NCBI GenBank assembly: GCA_963785235.1 | Contig: CAWAUM010000011.1 | Coordinates: 233,724-297,723 of the forward strand | Direction of reading: 5' to 3' | Source: an uncultured delta proteobacterium | GTDB taxonomy: Bacteria; Desulfobacterota; Desulfomonilia; UBA1062 | Length of the DNA: 64,000 bases | Shown here: piece after piece, positions 5,953 through 52,980 of the stretch | Numbering within the stretch: the first letter of the stretch is position 1 | How the letters are laid out: each line of letters opens with the position of its first letter | The notes under the pieces: generated by a model | What the model saw: the letters and a program-made list of their open reading frames with translations, nothing else | Databases searched by the model: none | Told to the model about the DNA's origin: nothing | Program-made: the position numbers and the translations under genes

Positions 5953-6005
5953 AGTGACCCCTGCATAGCCTTCCAGACATTTTGTTGCGAGAGGAAAAAA
6001 CCTTA

Positions 6006-6056
6006 CCCGTTCAAAACATGCATCTTGGTGAAACCAAGATGCATGTTTTGAACGGG
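6006..6056. terminator. Perfect 24-bp palindrome with 3-nt loop; probable bidirectional intrinsic terminator and copy 1 of a repeat family
   Basis: cccgttcaaaacatgcatcttggt (6006-6029), gaa loop, accaagatgcatgttttgaacggg (6033-6056). An A6 run lies upstream and a T-rich run (aatttttggttt) downstream, so a T/U tract follows the hairpin on either strand. Sits between the convergent hemN-like and dnaA genes. Confidence 0.65.
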
Positions 6057-6122
6057 CCAATTTTTGGTTTGCATCTCAAGGATTCTTTTGTTGTGAAATG
6101 TTCTGATGAGGGTAAAAAGCCC

Positions 6123-7469
6123 TCAAGCCGACTCACTGTCAAGCTTCTCAATGAGGAAATCAATCTCCCGCTTCACCTTGAGGTTCTGTGTGTACTGGGC
6201 CTCGATTGTCTCTAGGGAGTGGATGACAGAGGAGTGCTTCCGGGAGAAGGCCTCGCCAATGATCTGCAGCGGCTCCTCAGTATAACGTCTGCACAGGAAG
6301 ATAGCCACCTGGCGTGGATATACGATGTCCTTCTTCCGTGAAGGTGAGACAATCTTGTCTTTGGGTATGGAAAAATTTTTCGAGATGAAATCAAGAATAT
6401 ACGGGATGTTTATCCGCTGCTGTTTTTCCAGGGTCCCTTCAAGGAGTTCCCGGGCAAGCTCCAGGGTGATCGTACGCTTCATGAGAGAGCTCATGGCGGA
6501 AATGGTCATCACCGCACTTTCCAAGTCCCTGATGCTGGTATGGATGGTATTGCTCATGAACTCCACCACCTCATCGGGCATGCTTACCCCGTTCTTTTTT
6601 GCCTTGTGGCGGACAATCTTGGCCCTCGTTGTCTTATCAGGGCGCTTGATATCGATAACGAGCCCAGAAGATAAGCGTGACCTGAGTCCCTTGTCGATCT
6701 GGGGTATGGAAGTGGGCGGACGGAAGCCCGAGAGGATCACCTGCTTGCCCGCACTGATGAGGTCGTCAAGCACATGGCATAATTCAACCTGGGTCTTTTC
6801 CTTATTTTTGAAGAGATGGACATCATCAATAAAAAAGATATCCATGTTTTGGCTTCGGTATGAGCTTTTGAAGGAACTGAGAAAATTGTTTCTCACCGAG
6901 TGGACATAATCCTGCGTAAAGTCCCTGGCTGTAGTGTACCGCACACTGGTCCCATTGCGTAATGAAACGAGCTTGTTCCCTATGGCATGGGAGATGTGGC
7001 TCTTTCCAAGACCCACATCGGAATAAAAGTACAGAGGGTTATACCGGCGCAGATCCCCTTCGGAGACCGCAAGTGCCGCCTCATAGGCAAAGGCATTGCA
7101 TTTGCCCACTACAAACTCGTCAAAGGTGAATTGGGCATTGAGTCCGGATGAGGCCGGCGTTGGAAGATGTGAGGGCAGGCTCATCTGAATGGGAAGGCTA
7201 TCAGCCTGCGCCGGCCTTTGTGCCTGATGCTCGCTGAGAGGATTTACGCAGAACTCAACATCTGCCGGTCTGCCGAGATGAGACCTGACAGATGAGATGA
7301 TAAGATCTTTATAAACCCGGGATATATGCCTCTGGGCAAAGACATTGGGACAGCGGACAAAGACAGTGCCATCCTCCTCACAGATATCGATCTGGTCTAT
7401 GAGCGCCCTGTCCGATGCGGCATGCGACATTGAGAGAATAGATTCTTTAATAATTGCAAAGTGATTCAC
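6123..7469 (-). CDS. dnaA: Chromosomal replication initiator protein DnaA
   Basis: 448 aa. AAA+ Walker A GLGKSHISHAIG, Walker B FFIDDVH, and C-terminal DNA-binding domain IV (VYPRQVAIFLCRRYTEEPLQIIGEAFSRKHSSVIHS). Confidence 0.95.
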   Translation of the reverse strand: MNHFAIIKESILSMSHAASDRALIDQIDICEEDGTVFVRCPNVFAQRHISRVYKDLIISSVRSHLGRPADVEFCVNPLSEHQAQRPAQADSLPIQMSLPSHLPTPASSGLNAQFTFDEFVVGKCNAFAYEAALAVSEGDLRRYNPLYFYSDVGLGKSHISHAIGNKLVSLRNGTSVRYTTARDFTQDYVHSVRNNFLSSFKSSYRSQNMDIFFIDDVHLFKNKEKTQVELCHVLDDLISAGKQVILSGFRPPTSIPQIDKGLRSRLSSGLVIDIKRPDKTTRAKIVRHKAKKNGVSMPDEVVEFMSNTIHTSIRDLESAVMTISAMSSLMKRTITLELARELLEGTLEKQQRINIPYILDFISKNFSIPKDKIVSPSRKKDIVYPRQVAIFLCRRYTEEPLQIIGEAFSRKHSSVIHSLETIEAQYTQNLKVKREIDFLIEKLDSESA

Positions 7470-7727
7470 AAAAAACCCCCACAGAGAGTAAATTCATAGT
7501 TAACGGGTGACATAATGGGTCTAGTGAAAAAAAAGGTCAAAGGTGAAACACCCCGGTTATAGGTAGACCGTGTTAATTTTGTGTAAAGGGAAATAACTAT
7601 AGTAATATTAATAACATGAATAGCGGATCGCGACATTCAGGGCATCTGGTGGCACCCGTTCAGGACTCTGGTCGTACCTGGTTCCGGAAGTCTTATCTAC
7701 ATTTTGTAGAAAACTGATGAGCTCTTA

Positions 7728-9162
7728 TTATCTTGATCTTTCTTTGAAAACTTTGAGATTACGATAGATGAGTGAATACTGCCCGGCAGGTTTTGCCCAG
7801 CTCACATCGAGTTCCATTGCATTGCTTATCATAGCATTAAGCAGGTCTCTCTCATCTTTAAAGATTCTGCATGCCTGTGAGACCGCATGCAGCAGTGCTT
7901 CCGTGTCTGGGGTAGGTCACCCGCAGGCCTGTGGGGTTATCGCCTTCGCCAAGGGCAGTGACCGTATCCCGTAAGCCCCCTACACCGGTAACGATGGGGA
8001 TGGTACCATAGCGCATGCTGATCAGCTGGTTTAGCCCGCACGGCTCGAACCGGGAAGGCATGAGAAAAAAATCAGATCCTGCCTCGATGGCATGGGCCTT
8101 TGTCTCATCGAACCCTATGAAGATACCGACCTGTCCGCCGAATTCCTGATGGAGTTCGGCGAGTTTGCGCTCAAAGGCAGGGTTCCCGTTTCCGAGAATG
8201 ACTAATTTGGCACCCATGGCCGCTATCTTCGGGATGGCATCCAGTACGCAATCGATGCCCTTCTGCTCAACGAGGCGGCTGATGAGCCCGAATACCGGGG
8301 CGTCGTCAAGGGCCAATGAGAACATCTCCAGTAGAGCCCTTTTGCACAAGGCCTTGCCCTTTAAATCCCTTGCAGAATACTGAGAAGCTATGAGGATGTC
8401 TTCAGCCGGATTCCATGTATCGATATCTATGCCGTTGGCAATACCGGTGAGCTTATATGAAATGGCTTTGAGGAGCCCATCGAGGCCGCTTCCGAACTCA
8501 CTTGTCTGGATCTCCTGGGCATAAGTGGGGCTCACGGTATTCACTGCATCGGCAAATATAAGCCCGGCCTTCATGATGTTTATCCTGCCATAATATTCCA
8601 TGGCATCAGGGTGGAATAACTCGTGCGGCAGGAAGAGCATGGACCAGAGTATGGCATCGAAGAGGCCCTGGTAGGCTAGGTTATGGATGGTGAACAGGCT
8701 GCCGACCTTCTCGATGCCTGCGTCTTTCATGTAGGCAAGCACCAGGGCTGTCTGCCAGTCATTGCAGTGGACGATATCCACATCACCCATGAGCCTGATC
8801 ATCTCCACACATGCCCGCGAGAAGAAGGCGAAGCGCTCGAGGTTATCCGGATAATCGTAGCCCGCAAAGGAATACAGACCTGTCCGGTCAGAGAACAGCG
8901 GATGCGAAATGAAGTAGGTCGTGCCATGCGAGAAGATCTTCGCTTCCGAAATCCCCGTTCCGGTGAGGACCGATATATCGCCATGGGGCTTCAGTGCAAG
9001 TCCCATGTTCATGACTTCACGGTACAGCGGCATCACCACGGAACAATCAATACCCTGCCGGTTAAGCTCGGCAGGCAGGGCCGCGCTTACATCCGCCAGT
9101 CCCCCGGTCTTTGCATACGGAGTGACCTCGGATGAACATACCAATACCTTCATAACAGCCAT
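7728..9162 (-). CDS. glgA: Glycogen synthase GlgA (reading frame interrupted near 7900 as assembled)
   Basis: N-terminus MKVLVCSSEVTPYAKTGGLADV is the GlgA signature. The track ORF 7858-9162 ends prematurely. The conserved C-terminus (EALLHAVSQACRIFKDERDLLNAMISNAMELDVSWAKPAGQYSLIY) continues in another frame to a TAA at 7728-7730. Confidence 0.85.
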
Positions 9163-9520: not shown

Positions 9521-10117
9521 ATGACCAGGGAGGAGTTTGAAATATCGCTTAAGGAATTCGAGTCGCAGATCAAGAAGAAGCTCCCCTCCATGATCAACAG
9601 CTACCTCATGAATCGAGGGAACCGTGAGTTTGAAACGGCCTTCACCCATCTTGTGGAGATCCTGGGCAGACAGAGGAAGAATCTCCTGAAGGACCTGACC
9701 AGGGTGGCAAGGCTCGAACAGAAGACCCGGTACTTCAATGCCACCAATAATATGGATTCCCAGCTCAGGAGCATGGGAAACAGAGATGCCTTGAAACAAC
9801 AGACGAAATTGCGGCAGCATCGTGTCCATGCACCGCTTGTCTATGACCTCGGGGCAGGGCCTGAAGCGGGTGACCTCCTGAACGCCGATGATTTAGGCGT
9901 CTTGCTGGAGACTACGGAAAAGGTATCCATCGACCATGAGGTGAGGATAAGCCTCTCAGGGAAAAAGGCGCGCGGCAAGGCCATGTGGTCAATCCCTGAT
10001 GAGACAGGCCGCATGGAGACGGGGGTCAAACTGCTCAATCCATCTGAGGATTTCCTGGAAGAACTCAAGAAGATTATCAAGAAGCCTGCAAAAAAGCAGA
10101 AAAATCCTCATGATTGA
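9521..10117 (+). CDS. Hypothetical protein (198 aa, charged, Lys-rich C-terminal tail)
   Basis: Open frame with no competing ORF of better quality, 35 nt upstream of mtaB on the same strand. I recognise no motif. Confidence 0.4.
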   Translation: MTREEFEISLKEFESQIKKKLPSMINSYLMNRGNREFETAFTHLVEILGRQRKNLLKDLTRVARLEQKTRYFNATNNMDSQLRSMGNRDALKQQTKLRQHRVHAPLVYDLGAGPEAGDLLNADDLGVLLETTEKVSIDHEVRISLSGKKARGKAMWSIPDETGRMETGVKLLNPSEDFLEELKKIIKKPAKKQKNPHD

Positions 10118-20378: not shown

Positions 20379-22815
20379 AGATGACCTTGCGTATGGATAC
20401 CCCTTCGATAAAGCGCTTCACGTTCGTGTCGGAATACGCAGCGGTTTCCACCTCAGCCTGAGGCGTATCCTTGGGCATTTCGATGGTGGCGCGCAGCTTG
20501 CCGTTCACCTGTACCGCGATTGTCACATTCGAGTCCTGGGCCCATGTGGGATCGAATTCGGGCCAGGGGTGCTCGAAGAGCCTGCCTGACAACCCTATGG
20601 TTTCCCACAGCTCATCGGCGATATGCGGGACAAAGGGCGAGAGCATGATGATCAGGTGCTCGATGGAATACTTCAGCACAGCCGCTTCTTCGGCGTCCTT
20701 TACCACTTCTTTTGTCTTATAGAGATCGTTTATGAGCTCCATCATGGCGGCTATGGCCGTATTGAACCGGAAGCGCTTGTCTATGTCCTCAGTGACCTTG
20801 CGGATGGTCTGGTGTGTCTTCCTCATGATGGGCTCTACGGATGCCGGTACCCGGGTAACCTTAGATGTCCCCTCCATTGCCTTGATGTCCATGGCAAGAC
20901 GCCAGAGCCGGGTCAGAAACCGGTAGGTCCCCTCAATACCCTGGTCGCTCCAGTCCATGTCCTTCTCGGGCGGGGCGGCAAAGAGGGTGAAGAGCCTGGT
21001 GGCGTCAGCGCCGTAGCGTGCTATCATGTCTTCGGGATCAATCACGTTACCCTTGGACTTACTCATCTTGGCGCCGTCTTTGATGACCATGCCCTGGGTC
21101 AGCAGCCTCTCAAACGGTTCATCAAATGCCACATAACCCAGGTCGCGCAGCACCATGGTAAAGAACCGTGAGTACATGAGGTGCAATATGGCATGCTCGA
21201 TGCCGCCGATGTACTGGTCCACCGGCATCCAGTACGCAACCTCCTTGGCGTCAAAGGCCTTGTCCTTGTGGTTGGGGCTGGTATAGCGGATGAAGTACCA
21301 GGAGGACTCCACAAAGGTGTCCATGGTGTCGGTCTCACGCTTGGCCTTGCCGCCGCATGAAGGGCACTTCGTGTTCACGAATGACTCCACCTGGGCTATG
21401 GGTGATTCGCCGGCGCCGGTGAGCTTTACGTCCTCGGGCAGGATAATGGGCAGGTCTTCTTTTTTTACCGGGACGGTTCCGCACTTTTCGCAGTGCACCA
21501 CCGGGATGGGTGCGCCCCAGTAACGCTGTCTCGATATGCCCCAGTCACGCAGTTTGAAGTTGATTGTGGGCTCACCCCTGCCAAGGGACTGGAGATGTTC
21601 GGTGATGCCCTTCATGGCGTCGGTATTCTTCATGCCGTTGAACTGCTGTGAATTCACCAGCACACCTTCACCCTCGTAGGCAGCTTCCATAGTCTCCGCC
21701 TTGAGTTCTTCGCCCTCAGGCTGGATGACCACTATGATGGTAAGGCCGTATTTCTTGGCAAACTCGAAGTCGCGCTGATCGTGCGAGGGCACGGCCATGA
21801 CTGCGCCGGTGCCGTAGTCATACAGCACGAAGTTGGCCACATAGATGGGCATCAGAAAGCCGGTGAGCGGATTTGTGCAGTATTTGCCCGTGAACACGCC
21901 CTCTTTCTCATAGGAATCCGAGGTACGGGTGATCTTGTCCTCCTTGAGGGTCTTGTCTATAAAGGCCTTCACTGCTCCTTCCTGGCCGGTCCCTTTGGGC
22001 AGGGTCTTGGCCAGGGGGTGCTCCGGCGCAATGCTCATGAAGGTGGCGCCATAGAGGGTATCGGGTCTGGTGGTGAAGACCTCGATGTCATCATTGGTGC
22101 CATCGATGGCAAACTTCAGGAGCGAGCCTGTGCTCCTGCCGATCCAGTTTCTCTGCATGGTCAGCACGCGCTCGGGCCAGCCTTCTTTGAGGCGCTCGGT
22201 ATTGTCTAGAAGCTCCTGGGCGTATTTGGTGATCTTGAAGAACCACTGGTCGTATTCCCTGAGGTACACCTGTGTGCCGCAGCGCCAGCATGCCCCTGCT
22301 TCCACCTGCTCGTTGGCCAGCACGGTCTTGCAGCTGTCGCACCAGTTCAGAAAGGTGCGGTCCTTGTAGACGAGGCCCTTCTCGAACATCTCTATGAAGA
22401 AGAGCTGCTCCCACTGGTAGTAGTTCGCATCACAGGTGGCGATCTCCCGGTCCCAGTCATAGCTGAATCCCATGCGTTTGAGCTGGACCTTCATGTATGC
22501 CATGTTCTCATAAGTCCATTTTTTGGGGTGCACACCGCTTGCAATGGCGGCGTTCTCAGCGGGCATGCCGAAGGCGTCCCATCCCATGGGATGCAGCACG
22601 TTAAAGCCTTTCATCTTCTTGTAGCGGGCCACCACGTCGCCGATGGTATAGTTGCGGACGTGGCCCATGTGGATACGGCCCGAGGGGTAGGGGAACATCT
22701 CCAGGAGATAGTATTTCTGTTTGGAATCATCGACCTCCACCTTGAAGAGCTTGCTGTCTTCCCAGCGCTTCTGCCATTTGGCCTCGATCTCCTGAGGTCT
22801 GTAGTCCGTCGTCAT
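20332..22815 (-). CDS. leuS: Leucyl-tRNA synthetase
   Basis: Class I aaRS with HMGH (HIGH-type) motif and KMSKSKGN. The start I prefer is the internal ATG at 22813-22815 ([18 protein letters not shown]), preceded by GGAGGA. The track ORF extends to 22902 without conserved sequence. Confidence 0.95.
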
Positions 22816-22954
22816 ACGTTCCTCCACATGAATGGTGAGAGCACAATTAACACAACACCTCCCCTTCGTCCAGTCCCCGTTCCCGCGTATCGAACCGTAC
22901 ATTCCAAGATGATATACATCTTAAATATTTCTTCAGATACAAACCAAAAATTGG

Positions 22955-23005
22955 CCCGTTAAAATCATGAATCTCGGTGAAGCCGAGATTCATGATTTTA
23001 ACGGG
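22955..23005. repeat. Perfect 23-bp palindrome, copy 2 of the palindromic element family (terminator-like, in a divergent promoter region)
   Basis: cccgttaaaatcatgaatctcgg (22955-22977), tgaag, ccgagattcatgattttaacggg (22983-23005), followed by gtaaggTTTTTTT. The flanks ccaaaaattggcccgtt and aacgggtaaggtttttt are identical to copy 1 in inverted orientation. Confidence 0.8.
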
Positions 23006-23141
23006 TAAGGTTTTTTTATCCGAGACCCTTTCCGGAATTGTGCAAAGCTCTTAACTTTTGTAACTGCATTGGTGTCCCTGAGGTCTCTTCAGGCTCTTTG
23101 CGCTTGCATTTCATGGCCATATTGATATGTAAGGGGACACT

Positions 23142-25547
23142 ATGAGGTGGCTCAAATTCATACTTCTTATCATGGTGATCATCATTGTCCTGTGTGGAGC
23201 AGCAATCTATGTATTCGTACTCAGGGGGCTTCCTTCCCTTGAAGAGCTCAAAGGCGATGAGGTGACCAAGCTCAGCAAGGTTACCGCTGCCGACGGTACA
23301 CCCATCGGCTACTTCCCGCCCGAAGGAAGGGTTGTCATGAACGGGCACAACATCCCCATTACCCTCAAGCAGGCCATCATCGCTGCAGAGGATTCCACCT
23401 TTTATGATCATGTGGGACTTGAACCGCGCAGGATCATAAGTGCATTGCTCGCTGATATCAGGGCAAACTCCTATGTCCAGGGCGCATCTACCATAACCCA
23501 GCAGGTTGTCAGGTCGTATCTGCTCACCAATGAAAAGACCCTTGCCAGGAAGGTCAGGGAGATCGTTCTGGCGCTGCGCATCGAACAGGCCCTGACCAAA
23601 GAGCAGATTTTAAACCTGTACCTTGACCGCATCTACCTGGGAAGCGGGGCCTATGGAGTACAGGCGGCCTCCTTTCGTTATTTCGGCAAGGAGTGCAGAG
23701 AGCTCGAGCTCTCGGAGATGGCACTGCTTGCAGGGCTTGCCCCTGCGCCTACGAGATATTCTCCGCTGAATGATTTCACTGCTGCAAAAAGAAGGCAGTG
23801 GTATGTCCTTTCCCGCATGGTGTCCGAAGGTTACATTACCGGAGACGAGGCCCGTGAGGCATACAAGGACCCTTTGAGGATCATAGCCAAGGATGTGGCC
23901 CAATTTTCCGAATACCCCTATATCACCGACTATGTGAAGACGCTCGTGACCAAGCAGTTCGGCGAAGATATCTTCAACAAAGGGATCATTATCCGCACTT
24001 CGATAATACCTGAGCTCCAGCGCTCGGCAATGCTCGCTGTCCGCAAGGGGGTTATCGAGCTGGAGATGAGACAGGGCAAGTATCGTGGCCCCATAAAGGA
24101 TGTACCCCAAAGCGATGGTACGCTCAAGCCATTGGCCCTGCCGACAAGGATCGCATCTTTGCATTGCAGTCAAACCAGCTTGCATGGAAAGGATACGAAC
24201 CCTATGAGCTCTATTGGGCAGAGGTGACAAGACTGGATCCATTAACGGTAAAACTCGGCACCAGAAGCCTGGAACTCGGCCCGGGCAGCTACGCCTGGAT
24301 CAACCCCAAGGGGAATTGGAATCCCGGCAGCGTGCTCAAGCCCGGCGATCTCATAGCAGCTCTGCTCTACGCCCGGCGGTTTTGTGATCTCGCAACACCC
24401 TCAGGTTCAGGGGGTGCTTGTAGCCTTTGATTTGGAAAAGGCCGGCATCCTTGCCATGGTTGGAGGGGTCGACTATGCCCAGAGCCAGTTCAACAGGGCC
24501 ATATACGCAAGGAGGCAGAGCGGTTCGGCAATAAAACCCTTCATCTATGCGGCAGCTATCGACAAGGGGCTGACCCCGGCCTCCATCATCTTCGACTCGC
24601 CGGTGACCTATAATGCCGGGGCGGATGAGGAAATGTGGCAACCTAAAAACTACGAAAACCGCTTCTATGGTGCAACCACATTGAGGACCGGCCTTGTCCT
24701 GTCAAGAAACGTGGTTACCATAAAGATTTTAAACCAGATCGGCCTTGATTTTGCCATCTCATATATCAGACGGTTCGACATGCAATCGGATCTGCCTCGG
24801 AACCTTTCCCTGGCCCTGGGTTCAGGTTCGGTAACCCCTATTAACCTCTTTAAGGGGTATGCCGAGCTGGCCATCTATGGTCAGAAGTTTGATCCCCATA
24901 TGATCGAGAGCATTGTCCAAAGCGGAAAGGGGACTATCTTTCGTGCCCCTGCAGGCCCGGCAGCACTTACTTCTCCTGTTGTACCTGCGGTAACCGCCGG
25001 AACCGAAGGCATTACGGCAGATACGGCCTCTTTGACCAATGTCTTGCAAGATGGTATTGATGCCATCACGTCTATACCGGACCGGGGAGTTATCTCATCT
25101 CAGACGGCCTTCATTATCACGAACATCCTCAAGGACGTGGTGCAGGCGGGAACAGGTTGGCGTGCAAAGGCGCTTATGAGGCCTATTGCGGGAAAGACAG
25201 GTACCAGCGATGACAGCAAGGATACCTGGTTTATCGGATACTCCCCTGATGTCTTATGCGGTGTATGGGTCGGCTATGACAGCATGACTTCGCTTGGCGC
25301 GAATGAGACAGGCGGTAAAACCGCATGCCCAATATTTGTCGACTTCATGACAACAGCGTTGCGTGACAGGCCTGTGCGCGACTTCAGGGTCCCTGCGGGT
25401 GTGGTATTCGCCAGGGTCAACTCCAATACGGGCAAAGGGGCTGGTGAGGATTCTCTGGAATCACGTTTTGAGGTCTTTAAGCAAGGCAGCGTACCTGCAG
25501 CCGAGAAGGCCGTTAATGATGATCAATTGTTAAAGGAGGTCTTCTGA
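23142..25547 (+). CDS. mrcA: Class A penicillin-binding protein (PBP1A: transglycosylase/transpeptidase), two frame interruptions near 24200 and 24400
   Basis: N-terminal TM helix. GT51 motifs EDSTFYDH, GASTITQQ, RKVRE. Transpeptidase motifs SGSAIKP (SxxK), SRN, KTGTS. Split over track ORFs 23142-24227, 24164-24430 and 24384-25547. Confidence 0.85.
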
Positions 25548-31267: not shown

Positions 31268-31714
31268 ATGATAACCCGCAAGAAGGCATTTGCAGAAGAT
31301 CTCCTGCTCCTTCAGGACAGGATGAACAGGGTTTTTGAGGAGAGTCTGAGGGAAACCGGTATTTCCCGGAATCCAGGACAGTGGATTCCCTACGTGGATA
31401 TGTTTGAGGATGATGTATCGCTTATACTCAAGGTCGAGCTTCCTGGTGTGAGGCGCGAGGATATTGGACTCGATATTACTGAGGGTATTCTCACCATCAG
31501 CGGCAAGAAGCCCTTTGAGCACGAGGAAACCTCTGAGAGTTTTCATGTCATGGAGCGGCAATACGGGCTTTTCAAGAGATCTTTCACCTTGCCCGGGTCG
31601 GTGGATGTTGAGAGCATTGAAGCCGGATATCATGCAGGTGTCCTGGAGGTGGTCCTTCCAAAACCCGCGGACACGAAGTCGAGAAGGATACCCATTATCA
31701 GGCAAGGCGATTAA
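31268..31714 (+). CDS. hsp20: Small heat-shock protein, Hsp20/alpha-crystallin family
   Basis: 148 aa. WIPYVDMFEDDVSLILKVELPGV..GILTISGKK and the AGYHAGVLEVVLPK alpha-crystallin core. Lies 18 nt downstream of rpoH. Confidence 0.9.
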   Translation: MITRKKAFAEDLLLLQDRMNRVFEESLRETGISRNPGQWIPYVDMFEDDVSLILKVELPGVRREDIGLDITEGILTISGKKPFEHEETSESFHVMERQYGLFKRSFTLPGSVDVESIEAGYHAGVLEVVLPKPADTKSRRIPIIRQGD

Positions 31715-32240
31715 AGATCGCAAGGTTCAGGGTATTCATCGCACTCTTTTTCGATATGATATCAACTAACTTAAAGGGATGGGGGAGTTCAGGCGTACTG
31801 AGGGTGAAAAGGTAATAAAGCCTCCCTCCCGGCATGAGGAGCTTCAAACAGACATCTTCCAAGGTGCTCAGTGGTGAAAATGACCTTGCGAGTACGGCAT
31901 CGAATTGCCCGACTTCATCATGGAAAGGGTCATGTGGGAGGATTTCCACATCAGATAGGTTAAGCAATTCGATTGTATGCTGCAAGAAGGTGCATTTTTT
32001 GACGCTCCGCTCAATCAGGCAGATATGCGAGTCAGGATGGAGGATTTTGTAAGGGATTGCAGGCAATCCTGATCCTGAGCCAAGATCGGCAAGAACAGGC
32101 TCTTCTATTTGCATTAGCAGGGGCAGCATTACTTCAAGCTCATCTTCAATACCTGTAAGCATAGAAGGCCCCATCAGGTGGAGCTTGCCGTTATAACGCC
32201 TCAGCTCCCGGATCCATGTTTTTAGCCTCTCGTCCATCAT
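31698..32240 (-). CDS. rsmG: 16S rRNA (guanine527-N7)-methyltransferase RsmG (GidB)
   Basis: 180 aa. SAM motif LADLGSGSGLPAIP. Follows mnmE with a 4-nt overlap. Confidence 0.85.
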   Translation of the reverse strand: MMDERLKTWIRELRRYNGKLHLMGPSMLTGIEDELEVMLPLLMQIEEPVLADLGSGSGLPAIPYKILHPDSHICLIERSVKKCTFLQHTIELLNLSDVEILPHDPFHDEVGQFDAVLARSFSPLSTLEDVCLKLLMPGGRLYYLFTLSTPELPHPFKLVDIISKKSAMNTLNLAIFNRLA

Positions 32241-33559
32241 TTTCCGACGCAGAAACGGGAGAATATCCGCTCAAGGATGTCCTCATCAGCGGTCTCGCCG
32301 GTCATTTGTCTGAGATGATCCATTGCATGCTTCAGATCAATAGTGAGTACGTCTGCGGTGAATCCTTCTAGGGTGGCCTTCAGGCAGGAGTTAAGGCTGT
32401 CAAGGGTCTTGCCAAGGAGGTATGTGTGCCTGTCCAGGAACACCAGCGGCTGGTCGTGTGGAAATGCCCGCCTCATGGCGGTTAATAACTCGTCAATGCC
32501 AAGAGCATATTTGGCCGAGATGCCAACCGTATCATACCCCGGGGCATCATTGACCTCTCCTTCAACCAGGTCCTTCTTATTCATTACCACAATAGTCTTT
32601 TCCGCCAGGTCCAGCCACTGTCTCTCATGGGATTTGATCCCCTCCCGGGCATCCACTACATAAAGGACAAGGTTGGATGCCTTCAAGGTCTCAATGGTCT
32701 TTTCCACCCCGATCCGCTCAGGTCCTGATGCAGTTTCCCTGATTCCGGCGGTGTCGTGGAATACAAAGTCCATACCGCCCAGGTACAAATGCTCCCTCAG
32801 GACATCCCGGGTCGTTCCTTCCTCATGGTGTACAATGGCCCTGTTATACCCTAAGATAGCGTTGAAGAGCGATGACTTGCCCACATTGGGCAGTCCTGCA
32901 ATGGTTGTAACAATACCTTCATATATCCCTTTGGCCTCTGTAGCGTCTTTGAGAAGCCCGGAGATTTGTGAAGTGATGTGGGTAAGCGTTTCGAGGAGTG
33001 TTTCTTGCCCGATGGGTTCATCCTCAATGATAAAGGATGCTTCAATATCGGCTAGTATCACCATGATAACTTCGATCATAGACTTGACCCTGCCTGAAAG
33101 CTCACCTTTCAGGAGTGCATGTGCCATCTCGCAGCCTATTGGACTTGAAGAGCCGATGAGTGCGCCAACGGCCTCGGCCTGGACCAGGTCCATCTTGTGG
33201 TTTAAAAAGGCCCTCCTGGTGAATTCTCCCTTGTGTGCCAGGCGTGCTAGGCCGGTGGATGAGATTGCTCCCATAATACGCTCCACCACCAGCGGGTTGC
33301 CGTGGCAGCTTATTTCGGCCAGGTCTTCTCCGGTATATGAGTCAGGGCCGGGGTGGAACACGAGCATAGTCTGGTCTATGATAGCGCCCTTGCTATCTTT
33401 AATGAGTTCGAGGAACTGAGTGTGGGGTGAGAGTTTATGGTTTGAGCTGATCCTTGAAATAATATCAAGCGTATGCACTCCGCTCATGCGGATAATGCTG
33501 ATAGCGCCGTGACCTCTCGGGGTCGACTCGGCATAGATGGTGTCTTTTACCGTCTCGAT
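32237..33559 (-). CDS. mnmE: tRNA modification GTPase MnmE (TrmE); start codon uncertain
   Basis: G-domain GLPNVGKSSLFN, DTAG, NKKD, and the C-terminal FCVGK. The conserved N-terminus KDTIYAESTPRGHGAISIIRMSG is encoded in frame upstream of the track ORF start (33487). No ATG/GTG/TTG lies before it (see findings). Confidence 0.9.
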   Translation of the reverse strand: METVKDTIYAESTPRGHGAISIIRMSGVHTLDIISRISSNHKLSPHTQFLELIKDSKGAIIDQTMLVFHPGPDSYTGEDLAEISCHGNPLVVERIMGAISSTGLARLAHKGEFTRRAFLNHKMDLVQAEAVGALIGSSSPIGCEMAHALLKGELSGRVKSMIEVIMVILADIEASFIIEDEPIGQETLLETLTHITSQISGLLKDATEAKGIYEGIVTTIAGLPNVGKSSLFNAILGYNRAIVHHEEGTTRDVLREHLYLGGMDFVFHDTAGIRETASGPERIGVEKTIETLKASNLVLYVVDAREGIKSHERQWLDLAEKTIVVMNKKDLVEGEVNDAPGYDTVGISAKYALGIDELLTAMRRAFPHDQPLVFLDRHTYLLGKTLDSLNSCLKATLEGFTADVLTIDLKHAMDHLRQMTGETADEDILERIFSRFCVGK

Positions 33560-34284
33560 GCCTTCCTCGGCACAATGATCACTTTTTTATAAATACCTTC
33601 GCCAATACTCTTGGTATTAAGCCCGTTCTCATTCTTGAGGGCAAGATGAATGATCCTGCGGTCATAAGGATTCATCTTTTCCAGAGAGATGGCCTGGCCG
33701 GTGCGCTTGGCCTTTTGCCCCATCTTCAACGCCATGGACTTGAGATAGCTCACATGCCTTTGTCGGTACCCTTCCGTGTCCAGGGTTATAAACACCGGTT
33801 CGGACCTCGATTTGTTGATGATCCGGTTGAGGATAAACTGTAAAGAATCCAGTGTCTGTCCTCGTTTGCCGATTATCAGACCGGAACCGTCACCCATGAT
33901 CTCAAGGAGACCTTCTTCACGGACCTTTACCTCTCCGGGCATGTTCAGCAGCCTTAAGAGGTCGCTGACAACCCCTTGTGCCTCTAGAAGCATTTCCGGC
34001 GTTGGTGCCTGGGATTCGCTGGGAGGCTCCGGTTTAGGTTCTGCAGAAGGGGCCGGGGTTGTCTTAATTACTTCTGCTTTGATTCTATCGGGTTTTAAGA
34101 CGGCCTTTTCATGCCTGACCAGTATCTTTGCAGTTTTGTTACCAATGATTCCGAACAGACCCTTGGAGCCCTCGGAAACGACCTTGACCTCGAGGTCGTC
34201 AAAATCAGCATGCAAGGTCTTCATGGCAAGGATGACTGCCTCGTCTACGGTCTTGGCTTCAAATTCTCGGAAATCCTCTTCCAT
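33547..34284 (-). CDS. jag: RNA-binding protein Jag (KH + R3H domains)
   Basis: 245 aa. Jag_N region, KH-like GKRGQTLDSLQFI, and R3H (MNPYDRRIIHLALK). Sits in the yidC-jag-mnmE order. Confidence 0.85.
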   Translation of the reverse strand: MEEDFREFEAKTVDEAVILAMKTLHADFDDLEVKVVSEGSKGLFGIIGNKTAKILVRHEKAVLKPDRIKAEVIKTTPAPSAEPKPEPPSESQAPTPEMLLEAQGVVSDLLRLLNMPGEVKVREEGLLEIMGDGSGLIIGKRGQTLDSLQFILNRIINKSRSEPVFITLDTEGYRQRHVSYLKSMALKMGQKAKRTGQAISLEKMNPYDRRIIHLALKNENGLNTKSIGEGIYKKVIIVPRKASRR

Positions 34285-34293
34285 TCTTCTCTC

Positions 34294-35887
34294 CTATGCG
34301 GTTTTCCTGTTTATGTAAGCCTGCTGGGCAATTGAGAGGATATTGCTCACGAGCCAGTATATGACCAGACCGGAGGGGAAGCTCAGGAACATGAAGGTAA
34401 AGACAACCGGCATGAAAAGCATGATCTTCTGCTGCATGGGATCACCCGTGGTAGGCGTCATTTTCTGCATGATAAACTGGCTCGCCCCCATGAGGATGGG
34501 AGTGATGTAGTAGGGATCGCTGGCTGAAAGATCCGGGAGCCAGGTGCCGAACATATGGAACGGGGTGTGTCTGAGCTCAATGGCCTGGTAGAACACCTTG
34601 TAGAGGGCAAAGAGAATGGGGATCTGCAGGAGCATGGGCAGGCAACCACCCATGGGGTTGATCTTGTGCTCCTTGTAGAGCCGCATGAGCTCCTGGTTCA
34701 TCTTCTGTTTGTCGTCCTTGTACTGCTGCTGGACCTCCTTCATGAGCGGCTGGATCTTCTGGAGCTCCTTCATGGAGGTGAAGCTCTTGAGGGTCAGAGG
34801 ATAGAGAAGGAACTTGATGATGATGGTCAGGATGATGATAGTCCACCCGTAGCTGCCCACGTATTTGTAAATCCAGTTCATGGACATGAGCAGCGGTTTG
34901 GCGATGATGTCGAAGAATCCGAAATCCAGGGCCTTGTTCAGCTTGTATCCCACAGCCTCCAGGGGTTTCAGCTCTTTGGGGCCTAAGAAGATGATATTGT
35001 CCTTGATCAGTGATGAACCGGCTGCAATAGTGGCTGGGGCAAAGGTGTAGTTGAGCTCCACAGTCTTGTCGCTGGTACGTTTTATGATGAGAGTGGTACT
35101 CGAAGGTGTCTTGGGAATGATGGTCTGGAGAAAGTACTTATCCTCAAACCCGAACCACTGGATCTCTCCGGTGAAATCCCTATAACTCCCGATATTCTTA
35201 ACCTTGTCGATCTTGAATTCTTCAAGGTGCTTGCCGTTCAGCAGAACAGGGCCTTCAAAGGCGTACCCGCTGCTCTTTTCATCAATCTTATAGGTATGGT
35301 TAAACACGATCCCGCCGGATACGGACATGGGTGAGGCGGTATGATTTTCAATAATAGCCTGGTATCCTATCTGATAGGTTTTGGGGTCTATGGTGAATAC
35401 TTTTTTCAGGGTGATGGCGGGCGATGCCTGGCTTCGGAATTCAATGACCTGTGGTATGTCGGCAAGTGTCACGGGACCCTGCTGGGATGATTCATAAACA
35501 AGGCCGACATCTGTGAACCCACCGGAAAGAACAAGGTTAGGCATTGGGGCTTTGATGATCTCAACCGGCTTTGCGTCCTTGTCCATGGAGGTAAGGTATT
35601 TCTTCAATTTTAAAGAGGTGATCTGGGCACCTTTCGTGCTGAAGGTGGCAGTATACAAGGGGGTATCTATGATGACATCGTTACCAGCAATACTGAGAGT
35701 TTGCGGGGCTGTGGTCGGGGCGACATCGATGGGTTGTACCTCCTGAGTCGGCTGGCTTGGCGCTGCAACAATGGGCTGCCGGCTTCGGCTCAGGTGCGGT
35801 TTTTATCTTTGTCTGGTCAAAAAGCAAGCCCCAGCCGAACAGAATGGCCATTGATAAAATGATGGCAAGCAGAGTCCTTTTTTCCAT
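34294..35887 (-). CDS. yidC: Membrane protein insertase YidC (frame interrupted near 35770)
   Basis: N-terminal TM fragment MEKRTLLAIILSMAILFGWGLLF (track ORF 35681-35887), then the periplasmic domain and 60-kDa insertase core (GGCLPMLLQIPILFALY) in ORF 34294-35658. The linking sequence PIVAAPSQPTQEVQPIDVAP..TPLYTATFSTKGAQ reads through in the second frame. Confidence 0.9.
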
Positions 35888-36676: not shown

Positions 36677-37393
36677 ATGGCTTCTCCTTGTCAGACACTG
36701 GCCTTGTACGCTATAGCTCACATCATGCAAAGGGTATTCTGCAAACGCGAGGTGACCCATGGTCTGGACAGGGGTCCTGATGCCGTATCCGCAAGGCTCG
36801 CTGAGCTCCTGCCGGGCAGCCGTATTGTCTGCCTGGCGCAGATTCATTCGGACAGGATCGTAAGGGCCGAGGATATCCCCCCCGGGGTGTTCCCGGAGGC
36901 GGACGGGGTCATTTCTCTGGACCCGTCCCTGGTGCTGTGCATCCGCACTGCCGACTGCGTACCGCTGCTCATGTGGGCGGAAAATACGCCAATAATCGCA
37001 GCGGTTCATGCCGGATGGAAAGGACTCGCGAAGAAGATTGTCTCCAAAACAATCGATCTCATGCGCGCACTAGGCGCGCATGAGATCCATGTAAGCATGG
37101 GGCCATCCATCGGGCCATGCTGCTATGCCGTGGGGACAGAGGTCATTGAGGCACTTCAGACCGGGCCTGACCGACACTTTGGTGGAAGGCTTTATGTGGA
37201 TCTGCACCGCATCTCGGCGCTGCAGGCCAAAAACGCCGGCGTATCGCCTGATATGATCCATCAGGTGCAGGCCTGCACCTACTGCAACAGTGACTCGTTT
37301 TTTTCCTACCGGAGAGAAGGGGAGCATACCGGCAGGAACATATCGCTCATCGGAGGACTCTCATGCTCGTTGCCGGGCTTACAGGCTCTATAG
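36677..37393 (+). CDS. pgeF: YfiH/PgeF family (laccase-domain, peptidoglycan editing factor) protein
   Basis: 238 aa. QIHSDRIV, TADCVPLL and AVHAGWKG motifs, and the C-terminal CTYC..FFSYRR. Confidence 0.8.
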   Translation: MASPCQTLALYAIAHIMQRVFCKREVTHGLDRGPDAVSARLAELLPGSRIVCLAQIHSDRIVRAEDIPPGVFPEADGVISLDPSLVLCIRTADCVPLLMWAENTPIIAAVHAGWKGLAKKIVSKTIDLMRALGAHEIHVSMGPSIGPCCYAVGTEVIEALQTGPDRHFGGRLYVDLHRISALQAKNAGVSPDMIHQVQACTYCNSDSFFSYRREGEHTGRNISLIGGLSCSLPGLQAL

Positions 37394-39901: not shown

Positions 39902-39950
39902 CCTCTACAGAATGATCATCTCGCCATGCGAGATGATCATTCTGTAGAGG
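39902..39950. terminator. Perfect 23-bp palindrome with 3-nt loop; probable terminator between convergent proC and the LOG-family gene
   Basis: cctctacagaatgatcatctcgc (39902-39924), cat, gcgagatgatcattctgtagagg (39928-39950). On the reverse strand the hairpin is followed by acaggTTTTTc. On the forward strand no T-run follows. Confidence 0.6.
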
Positions 39951-41583: not shown

Positions 41584-41660
41584 TGAATAGGACCGCTTAT
41601 GCAATTCTGATGGTCTTAAGCAGAGTACTCATAGTGAACATGGAATTGTCTTTTCATAGG

Positions 41661-41746
41661 TCCGTTCAAAACCTGCATCTTGCAGCTTTGAAGGTCCGAC
41701 AGAATAAGCATAGAGAAAAGGCTGCAAGATGCAGGTTTTGAACGGA
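41661..41746. terminator. Perfect 26-bp palindrome with 34-nt loop; copy 3 of the palindromic element family
   Basis: tccgttcaaaacctgcatcttgcagc (41661-41686) pairs with gctgcaagatgcaggttttgaacgga (41721-41746), followed by taaggTTTTTa. Lies between the convergent PHP gene and the secretin gene. Confidence 0.6.
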
Positions 41747-41822
41747 TAAGGTTTTTACACCTCGTAACCGCAAAATCTGTCTTAAAGGCCTTGGAATGGT
41801 CGCAGCCATTCCCTACCATTCC

Positions 41823-52331: not shown

Positions 52332-52980
52332 GGTATCTTGACCTCATGCGAATTGTCAGATCATTGCCTGAAATCGTTGGATGAAAGAGGACTACTGCCT
52401 CTGCAAGCAGTTGGTTGTTCCGGTAGAGGCCGTCTCCCTTCAGTTCATAGTGGATAGCCGGGACCGCCCTGTTGCCTTGTACAGGCATTATGGCGCATGT
52501 CAGAGGGAGGGTTTTTTTATCCAGGCCCCGTGAATAGTTGTGGCCTACAACACAGGGGCCGTTCTCGGTTATTATTCCAAGGTCGGCCCAGAAGTCTGCG
52601 CGGCCGTCATTGTCGATATCTACGGTATCGAGTATTGCAACCCTTTCAGCTGAGGAATTGATGAGTGCATAGTAAGGTGCCGGATTGGTCAAGGATATGC
52701 TGATACCGGGATTTTCAGATGTGACAGGCACCCCTGCAATAAAAAGCTGGCTGCCTTCAATCGCAATCTTAAGGTCCTGCGGGAGCAATAATGCACACTG
52801 AACGAGATCTGCATTCAGCTGGATAGAGGCCTGGCGGAGCGACTGCATGCAATACCATGCCTCTCTCATTTCTTTATGCGTAACAGCCGAAACCTGGTAG
52901 AATTGATAGAGAGCGAGAAAAAGTATTGATGAGCATGCAAGCGCTATAAGCAACTCCACCATGCCCACACCTCTTTCCAT
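52288..52980 (-). CDS. Minor pilin, PilW-like prepilin-type protein
   Basis: 230 aa. MERG/VGMVELLIALACSSILFLAL (Glu+5). First gene of the cluster, overlapping the next gene by 44 nt. Confidence 0.65.
   Translation of the reverse strand: MERGVGMVELLIALACSSILFLALYQFYQVSAVTHKEMREAWYCMQSLRQASIQLNADLVQCALLLPQDLKIAIEGSQLFIAGVPVTSENPGISISLTNPAPYYALINSSAERVAILDTVDIDNDGRADFWADLGIITENGPCVVGHNYSRGLDKKTLPLTCAIMPVQGNRAVPAIHYELKGDGLYRNNQLLAEAVVLFHPTISGNDLTIRMRSRYHGTEKELSLSSPIQ

Follow-up and report, generated by a model that had tools for sequence, protein, structure and literature searches.

The leuS/PBP1A spacer

In the window (i.e. the whole stretch of DNA analysed, 64,000 nt from an uncultured member of the Desulfomonilia), leuS and the gene for PBP1A are divergently transcribed from either side of a 326 nt spacer. 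A long hairpin lies about midway in this spacer, separated by 139 nt from the start codon of leuS and by 136 nt from that of PBP1A. The leuS gene begins with an ATG at nt 22815 (minus strand), is preceded by GGAGGA, and specifies a protein of 827 aa, the same length as its closest homologues. On the other side, the transglycosylase ORF of PBP1A begins with an ATG at nt 23142 (plus strand). The PBP1A gene is split in the window (nt 23142 – 25547) into this ORF (361 aa) and a transpeptidase ORF (387 aa); compared with three relatives in which the gene is intact (about 801 aa), it carries a 1-nt deletion near nt 24131 and a 1-nt insertion near nt 24356, with about 75 codons out of frame and a stop codon at nt 24227. 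The split would reflect either a sequencing error or a pseudogene.

The hairpin will be referred to as copy 2 of the repeat family described below. Its plus strand reads, from nt 22946 to nt 23017, AAAAATTGG - CCCGTTAAAATCATGAATCTCGG - TGAAG - CCGAGATTCATGATTTTAACGGG - TAAGG - TTTTTTT. The stem consists of 23 perfect Watson-Crick pairs (nt 22955 – 22977 with nt 22983 – 23005), and the loop, TGAAG, could be closed by a T.G pair, leaving GAA. The tract 3' of the hairpin is T7 on the plus strand and CCAATTTTTGG on the minus strand. The first-pass annotation had described a perfect 23-bp stem between divergent genes, with T7 on the plus side and a U-run on the minus side, and reading of the sequence confirmed each of these points. 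As RNA, either strand folds with a predicted free energy of -47 kcal/mol (z = -8.4 for the plus strand, -8.7 for the minus strand; equalled by none of 200 shuffled sequences), and the core as DNA gives -27.5 kcal/mol (z = -12.8). The chance expectation for the arm sequence in the window is 0.00. The features of the spacer are given below, with sequences from related genomes denoted by L numbers.

22842..22873, minus strand: leuS-proximal conserved block, CACAATTAACACAACACCTCCCCTTCGTCCAG; kept in close relatives with or without the element; putative leuS promoter or leader
22887..23093, no strand: whole extra segment, about 207 nt (ends +/-3 nt); absent from the L014, L016 and L017 spacers
22897..22910, plus strand: decayed left terminal inverted repeat, ..GTACATTCCAAGAT; intact (CACATTGCACAAT) in orthologues L012 and L020
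22941..22954, plus strand: inner left flank, AAACC-AAAAA-TTGG; U-run CCAAUUUUUGG on the minus strand; near-invariant in the family
22955..22977, no strand: left stem arm, CCCGTTAAAATCATGAATCTCGG
22978..22982, no strand: loop, TGAAG; both orientations occur among family members and orthologues
22983..23005, no strand: right stem arm, CCGAGATTCATGATTTTAACGGG
23006..23017, plus strand: inner right flank, TAAGG followed by T7; near-invariant in the family
23034..23049, plus strand: right terminal inverted repeat, GGAATTGTGCAAAGCT; family consensus GGTTGTGCAAgGGTC
23094..23141, plus strand: PBP1A-proximal conserved block, CTCTTTGCGCTTGCATTTCATGGCCATATTGATATGTAAGGGGACACT; kept in all relatives; putative promoter and ribosome-binding site

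Filled and empty sites in related genomes

The divergent PBP1A/leuS arrangement is kept in every relative fetched. The state of the spacer in each sequence, together with its LeuS identity to the window, is as follows.

Window: LeuS reference; filled
L001: LeuS identity not determined (leuS ORF broken in this MAG); filled
L019: LeuS 96%; filled
L020: LeuS 95%; filled
L012: LeuS about 95% (inferred from its near-identity to L020); filled
L014: LeuS 94%; empty, complete spacer of 120 nt
L015: LeuS 90%; element absent, unrelated insert of about 230 nt at exactly the same junction (L015 nt ~9670 – 9900)
L016 and L017: LeuS 89%; junction empty, unrelated insert of about 115 nt nearer leuS (nt ~9790 – 9970)
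L018: LeuS 85%; spacer short, element absent

Comparison of this spacer across relatives for presence or absence of the element had been proposed in the first-pass annotation, and it is informative: the site is filled in five genomes, and is empty or without the element in L014 – L018, that is, in L014 and in all four of the spacers at 85 – 90% LeuS identity. The junction in L014 reads ...GTTCCCGC-AG-TCTTTGCGCTTGC..., and it is exactly here that the window has its extra ~207 nt (nt 22887 – 23093). The distribution of filled and empty sites indicates that the ancestral spacer was empty and that the clade of the window gained the segment, and supports a recent landing of copy 2 in this clade. 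Among the explanations offered earlier for the hairpin was that a mobile or repeated element had landed between the two genes, and both the dispersed family described below and the empty orthologous spacer at 94% LeuS identity bear this out.

The sequences on either side of the insertion are conserved, the leuS-proximal block being recognisable in close relatives, and partly in L018, and the PBP1A-proximal block in every relative. As the insertion point lies between these gene-proximal blocks, the two putative promoter regions have been parted but neither has been interrupted. No target-site duplication was found at filled junctions (window, L012, L020) when compared with empty ones (L014, L016). 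The segment gained exceeds the element by about 40 nt, which prevents a clean reconstruction of the insertion event. An 11-nt insertion after the left terminal repeat of copy 2 occurs only in the window and L001.

Presence and absence also vary at a second site, the spacer between dnaA and a hemN-like gene, which is filled in the window and in L008, and is occupied by unrelated sequence, or is only 38 nt long, in L021 and L022. Conversely, L021 has a variant copy in another divergent spacer (the glgA site) that is absent from the window; the glgA spacers align too poorly to give clean junctions. The leuS/PBP1A spacer is itself a hotspot for indels, with unrelated inserts in L015, L016 and L017.

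The MAG CAYMDG01 (L001 – L004), titled 'uncultured Bacteriovoracaceae bacterium', carries the near-identical orthologue, and its leuS is broken into two ORFs. Most named relatives of LeuS and DnaA are labelled Desulfomonilia, Desulfobacterota or Deltaproteobacteria, and the named LeuS matches at or below 89% identity bear the first of these labels, which puts the organism in the Desulfomonilia (Desulfobacterota); one LeuS match (76% identity) is also labelled Bacteriovoracaceae. The LeuS protein of the window, taken with either start, had no exact match in the collections. The taxonomic label of CAYMDG01 looks unreliable.

A dispersed family of intergenic fold-back elements

Three related copies are present in the window and more than 25 others in related Desulfomonilia contigs (more than 10 contigs). 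Besides copy 2, the window carries:

5956..6103 (core 6006 – 6056), minus strand: copy 1, same subfamily as copy 2, inverted; between the convergent hemN-like gene and dnaA
41639..41780, plus strand: copy 3, sister subfamily, with a 26-bp stem (41661 – 41686 / 41721 – 41746) and a 34-nt loop; between convergent PHP and secretin genes

A degenerate arm-plus-flank pattern search recovered four copies in one related MAG, and a flank-free pattern of the two arms recovered copies in nine sediment or wetland metagenome contigs, several of them with multiple copies. Further copies were found in loci fetched via LeuS and DnaA homologues, and contig L010, only 9 kb in length, carries five. Among the collections searched, no sequence relative was found outside this Desulfomonilia lineage. 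A phage or plasmid origin was also considered and is unsupported, since the 207-nt segment found no match in plasmids or phages and the two-arm pattern none in viral contigs.

The limits of the full element were taken from aligned independent copies with unrelated outer flanks. It is a non-coding fold-back of about 150 – 165 bp, made up of terminal inverted repeats, an A-tract, the hairpin and a T-tract, in the order GACCATTGCACAAC, ~30 nt, AAACCAAAAATTGG, the 23-bp stem and loop, TAAGGTTTTTT, ~30 nt, and the inverted terminal repeat. On the left-hand side of the stem, conservation extends for about 57 nt (aGACCATTGCACAAC...TCTCTTGAGATGCAAACCAAAAATTGG) and on the right-hand side for about 55 nt (TAAGGTTTTTTcCTCC.GCAACAAAATGT....GGTTATGCAGGGGTC), the right arm of the element being a diverged and shortened mirror of the left. 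The terminal repeats of independent copies (GACCATTGCACAAC on the left, GGTTGTGCAAgGGTC / GGyTATGCAGGGGTC on the right) are mutually inverted, and when the L020 copy is folded as a whole (-69.9 kcal/mol, z = -7.0) they are paired. The inner A-run and T-run vary no more than the stem does. In the L002 and L003 copies, nothing beyond the core (about 75 nt) remains.

A sister subfamily is distinguished by a 26-bp stem (TCCGTTNAAANCCT..ATCTCGCAGC) and by flanks of its own (CATGGAATTGTTTTTAAATAGG ... TCAAGTTTTTAC.C.TCTTAAACGCAAAATCTGG); the homologous loop, about 32 nt long, occurs in two orientations. Members of this subfamily, listed below, often lie 0.1 – 1 kb from a short-loop copy.

Window: 41639 – 41780 (copy 3)
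L005: 2935 – 3021
L009: 85 – 169
L010: 1, 1596, 4744 and 7374
L013: 3852 – 3937
L020: 13203 – 13288

Every copy of the family is intergenic, and most are downstream of at least one gene. When orthologues are collapsed, about 16 independent sites remain, of which about five are between convergent genes, about nine between co-directional genes and two between divergent genes, in a sample that is small and was partly picked for carrying the element. In L010 the copies sit between functionally unrelated co-directional genes (neighbours are gap and genes for an M48 peptidase, an RF-1-domain protein, an enoyl-CoA hydratase, MatE and an ADP-ribosylglycohydrolase), and the tightly spaced gene pairs of this contig are without copies. 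The orientation of copies with respect to transcription is mixed. Placement at gene boundaries fits either a module that, once transcribed, terminates or is cleaved, or a selfish repeat that is tolerated only at the boundaries of transcription units.

Several other palindromes and resemblances were seen in these sequences. A second perfect 23-bp palindrome in the window (CCTCTACAGAATGATCATCTCGC, loop CAT, nt 39902 – 39950), between the convergent proC and LOG-family genes, has the stem length and the inner ATCTCG of the family, and no further copy of it was present in the sequences fetched. A 14-bp, G+C-rich perfect palindrome (GATCTCATGCGCGC, loop ACTAG, nt 37055 – 37087) lies inside an ORF of the Cu-oxidase_4 family (nt 36677 – 37393) and was flagged on the minus strand by the terminator scan. 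The sequence at nt 52505 – 52529 (GGGAGGGTTTTTTTATCCAGGCCCC) shares 80% identity with the inner flank on the right side of copy 2 and has no hairpin; the resemblance is probably due to chance. A perfect palindrome of about 470 bp at L013 nt 1 – 470 was rejected as a candidate. It is a fold-back centred on a copy of the element, with flanks that are exact reverse complements out to the contig end, and almost certainly an artefact that the palindrome induced during assembly.

Near copy 1, a small hairpin (GAGGGCTTTTTACCCTC, nt 6104 – 6122) lies directly after the dnaA stop codon, between dnaA and the element, and may be the original terminator of dnaA. The window carries origin-region genes (nt 6123 – 7857 and 31698 – 35658), namely dnaA, followed by an A+T-rich spacer of 388 nt (nt 7470 – 7857), and yidC-jag-mnmE-gidB; it probably adjoins oriC.

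Stem covariation and loop inversion

Across the 19 copies tabulated, the stem varies essentially at only four positions, and always in both arms: pairs 7 (A:T or C:G), 11 (T:A or A:T), 16 (A:T or C:G) and 21 (C:G or T:A). At three of these positions the swap is a transversion, which cannot pass through a wobble intermediate, and no G.U intermediate was seen. In a formal covariation count over 14 sequences, 99.1% of cells were paired and both sides had changed at four pairs (18 cells), a result reached by none of 500 shuffles. The five orthologous copies at leuS/PBP1A differ among themselves at stem positions 7, 11 and 16, yet four of the five are perfectly paired, the L001 copy having a single C.A mismatch at stem position 14.

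The loops, judged against the asymmetric flanks, occur as reverse-complement pairs: TGAAG/CTTCA, TGAAA/TTTCA and AGAAG/CTTCT. That the core is flipped relative to the flanks between copies 1 and 2 had been pointed out in the initial reading of the window, and it holds, as the flanks of copy 1 are inverted and yet its plus-strand loop is TGAAA; the same situation recurs across the family, and the longer loops of the sister subfamily likewise have two orientations. A very recent example is provided by L020 and L012, which are 99.8% identical over about 2.3 kb (1034/1035 nt in leuS, 126/126 nt in each half of the spacer and 1045/1048 nt in PBP1A). Within the spacer and hairpin core, their sole difference is the five bases of the loop, which are exactly reverse-complemented.

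Template switching at inverted repeats leads to homogenisation of the arms and inversion of the spacer (PMC8794818, PMC8604942). If the replication machinery were to switch templates between the arms of the element, the stem would be kept perfect and the loop would be flipped, both at the DNA level, and selection on an RNA specific to leuS or PBP1A would be unnecessary for a perfect stem. The signature is the same as that seen here, with arms that change together, transversions that have no wobble intermediate, and an inverted spacer (PMC8794818, PMC8604942). Since concerted change of the two arms combined with inversion of the spacer is the documented signature of template switching, the perfect stem is attributed to a DNA-level process in preference to compensatory selection on RNA, and we infer from the pattern of substitutions that template switching, rather than RNA-level selection, maintains it. 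Such quasipalindrome mutation is a mutational process and not a family of elements; it covers the upkeep of the hairpin but not its origin or spread. Nor does template switching alone explain why 19 of the 23 stem positions are invariant across species-level divergence, which hints at sequence-specific recognition.

Possible roles at leuS/PBP1A

We think it likely that copy 2 is a bystander, i.e. an insertion of a fold-back, terminator-shaped repeat between back-to-back promoter regions. The 120-nt spacer of L014 and the gene-proximal position of the conserved blocks argue that the promoters do not lie beyond the hairpin; most probably both are gene-proximal and the hairpin is in neither leader. 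Copy 2 would then be part of neither the leuS nor the PBP1A mRNA and would be close to neutral, at most stopping stray or antisense transcripts that cross between the promoters. The only local effects that seem plausible are the blocking of stray transcripts and a change in the spacing or supercoil coupling of the two promoters.

An attenuator in the leader of leuS or PBP1A had been suggested earlier, in which the promoter of one gene lies beyond the hairpin and the stem and U-run set the level of read-through. The T7 tract does point towards PBP1A and a U5 tract towards leuS, and no sigma-70-like promoter was detected between the hairpin and either gene. On the other hand, a complete spacer can do without the element (L014), the gene-proximal blocks are conserved and intact on both sides of the insertion, and the same element is found at unrelated 3' ends elsewhere. 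In addition, the hairpin gave no match in Rfam at gathering thresholds, whether to a T-box, another leader family or a small RNA. We regard an attenuator as very unlikely, the short empty spacer and the gene-proximal blocks being the main points in its disfavour.

The reading of the hairpin as the 3' end of a small RNA is unsupported. A terminator-like hairpin with no annotated gene upstream might terminate an unannotated small RNA or small ORF within the spacer, and ORFs of 48 aa and 144 aa in the ORF list do cross it. However, the sequence upstream of the hairpin on either strand is the element's own arm, common to other loci, no promoter-like site was found there, and the whole segment is absent from close relatives. 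When Rfam was searched with E-value thresholds, only eukaryotic microRNA-precursor models and similar were returned, at 17 – 25 bits against gathering thresholds of 60 – 200, and these were set aside as noise from models that merely score a long hairpin. A small-RNA or small-ORF terminator at this site is extremely improbable.

A canonical intrinsic terminator was taken to have a G+C-rich stem, a U-run within 0 – 2 nt of it, and a position downstream of a gene. Copy 2 is not of this kind, as its T-run lies 5 nt past the perfect stem and both neighbouring genes point away from it. Scans for terminators (nt 22600 – 23400) and for sigma-70 promoters returned no sites in the spacer; the terminator scan, which counts at most 20 stem pairs, does not call copy 2. 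In the RNA fold of copy 2, AAACC/GGUUU pairing lengthens the helix so that the U-run adjoins it, and copy 2 may therefore still behave like a terminator. Across the window the scan found 69 terminator-like sites where about 53 were expected, and canonical terminators are thus no useful baseline in this genome.

If transcribed, the module of A-tract, long stem and T-tract would terminate transcription irrespective of its orientation or be cut by a double-strand RNase, and either behaviour would account for copies being found almost only at gene 3' ends and transcription-unit boundaries. By analogy with SPRITE, Correia and ERIC elements, the module probably does one or the other at gene 3' ends, terminating transcripts from either direction or feeding a double-strand RNase.

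Co-option of copy 2 as an insulator between the divergent promoters, whether as a protein-bound site, a cruciform or a bidirectional block to antisense transcription, was also weighed. Its retention in five genomes of the clade, the near-central position in the spacer, the 19 invariant stem positions and the second divergent-spacer copy in L021 would all be in keeping with such a role. The nearest empty-site relatives, however, manage without the element, the flanks of copy 2 are decaying (a degraded left terminal repeat and the 11-nt insertion), and stem conservation characterises the family as a whole and not the leuS/PBP1A site. We therefore consider an insulator unlikely, and a bystander insertion remains the preferred reading of copy 2.

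Possible mobilisation and relationship to known repeats

The element resembles a bacterial MITE in that it is small (MITEs measure about 50 – 300 bp or less), non-coding, dispersed and multi-copy, has terminal inverted repeats and shows insertion polymorphism (at the leuS/PBP1A, dnaA/hemN-like and glgA sites), but it falls short of one in having no visible target-site duplication. A Pfam scan of about 50 proteins from the window and the element-bearing contigs found no transposase and no RAYT-type/Y1 domain, and in the 64 kb of the window plus about 250 kb of loci, as far as scanned and from an incomplete genome, no RAYT gene flanked by repeats was found. No full-length IS with the terminal repeats of the element was found in the window or the fetched loci. 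Outside the copies, the terminal-repeat motif has only two-mismatch matches in the window, at about the level of chance, and in the fetched loci it occurs only in copies of the element. It is only from the patterns of presence and absence that the element appears to be mobile.

The closest analogue is SPRITE, likewise a dispersed non-coding repeat of less than 200 bp. In both, the core is a duplex of unusual length (18 bp for SPRITE and 23 bp for the present element) flanked by an A-run and a T-run, and copies are located near gene 3' ends, often between convergent genes. The two share the architecture of a long duplex with a U-rich tail, and neither has a demonstrable target-site duplication or a matching IS. 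There is, however, no sequence relationship, and SPRITE belongs to another phylum. The element described here differs further in its outer terminal inverted repeats of about 15 nt, in a perfect stem that is kept much more strictly, in having both loop orientations, and in the availability of empty sites for comparison.

Correia (CREE) and ERIC MITEs are also imperfect palindromes of 100 – 200 bp with terminal inverted repeats and intergenic positions; they may adjoin promoters, and RNase-sensitive duplexes are expected when they are transcribed (PMC10969869). Correia elements generate a TA duplication and contain promoters as well as an IHF site (PMC10969869), whereas neither a duplication nor a promoter-like site was found for the present element. 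Readings of the hairpin as an attC site, a parS site or a DNA-uptake sequence were dropped, as the motifs and contexts that define these (cassette arrays, the 16-bp parS consensus) are absent.

The family also resembles REPINs. REP units are by definition short, imperfectly palindromic sequences in which a 5' tetranucleotide is conserved. Apart from an ATGCAT or CATG palindrome, the 23-nt arm (CCCGTTNAAANCATGNATCTNGG) contains no hairpin of its own and is not a REP unit in this sense. In REP/REPIN sequences, as here, two inverted conserved units form a long hairpin with compensatory changes, and the repeats are extragenic and vertically inherited with occasional gain or loss (PMC3116915, PMC3337134); an inverted doublet with compensatory changes, intergenic dispersal, lack of a target-site duplication and invariant arm positions are all described for REPINs (PMC3116915). 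The family might then be a REPIN-like population, mobilised or maintained by a single-copy HUH/Y1 enzyme (RAYT-type) or by another enzyme that recognises the arms, and the invariant arm positions would agree with this. The proteins scanned, however, include no Y1 transposase, the arms on inspection are not short palindromes with a conserved 5' tetranucleotide, and the spacer is 5 nt (about 32 nt in the sister subfamily). A REPIN-like population appears unlikely on this evidence. The broader proposal, prompted by the near-invariance of 19 of the 23 arm positions, that a dedicated sequence-specific protein (RAYT-like, an HUH enzyme or a recombinase) recognises and propagates these Desulfomonilia hairpins, is similarly doubtful. 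If true, it would place a REPIN-type, vertically inherited replicator in a phylum for which none has been described, and the rapid flip-flop of the loop would be an enzyme-driven or regulated switch and not a replication error.

The family is new, and of a known and ordinary kind, being a small repeat like SPRITE, REPIN and MITE-like elements. For annotation, the hairpin between leuS and PBP1A is best described as a repeat element, and not as a regulator or attenuator of these genes or as the terminator of a small RNA. Its most unusual features are the very recent inversion of the loop and the strictly double-sided changes of the stem, and the family offers a clear case in nature of correction between arms, and of inversion of the loop, at a perfect palindrome over a very short timescale. 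It may serve as a strain marker and as a test case for template-switch mutagenesis and for terminators supplied by repeats. For this uncultured lineage, it shows a terminator-shaped module spreading through intergenic DNA.
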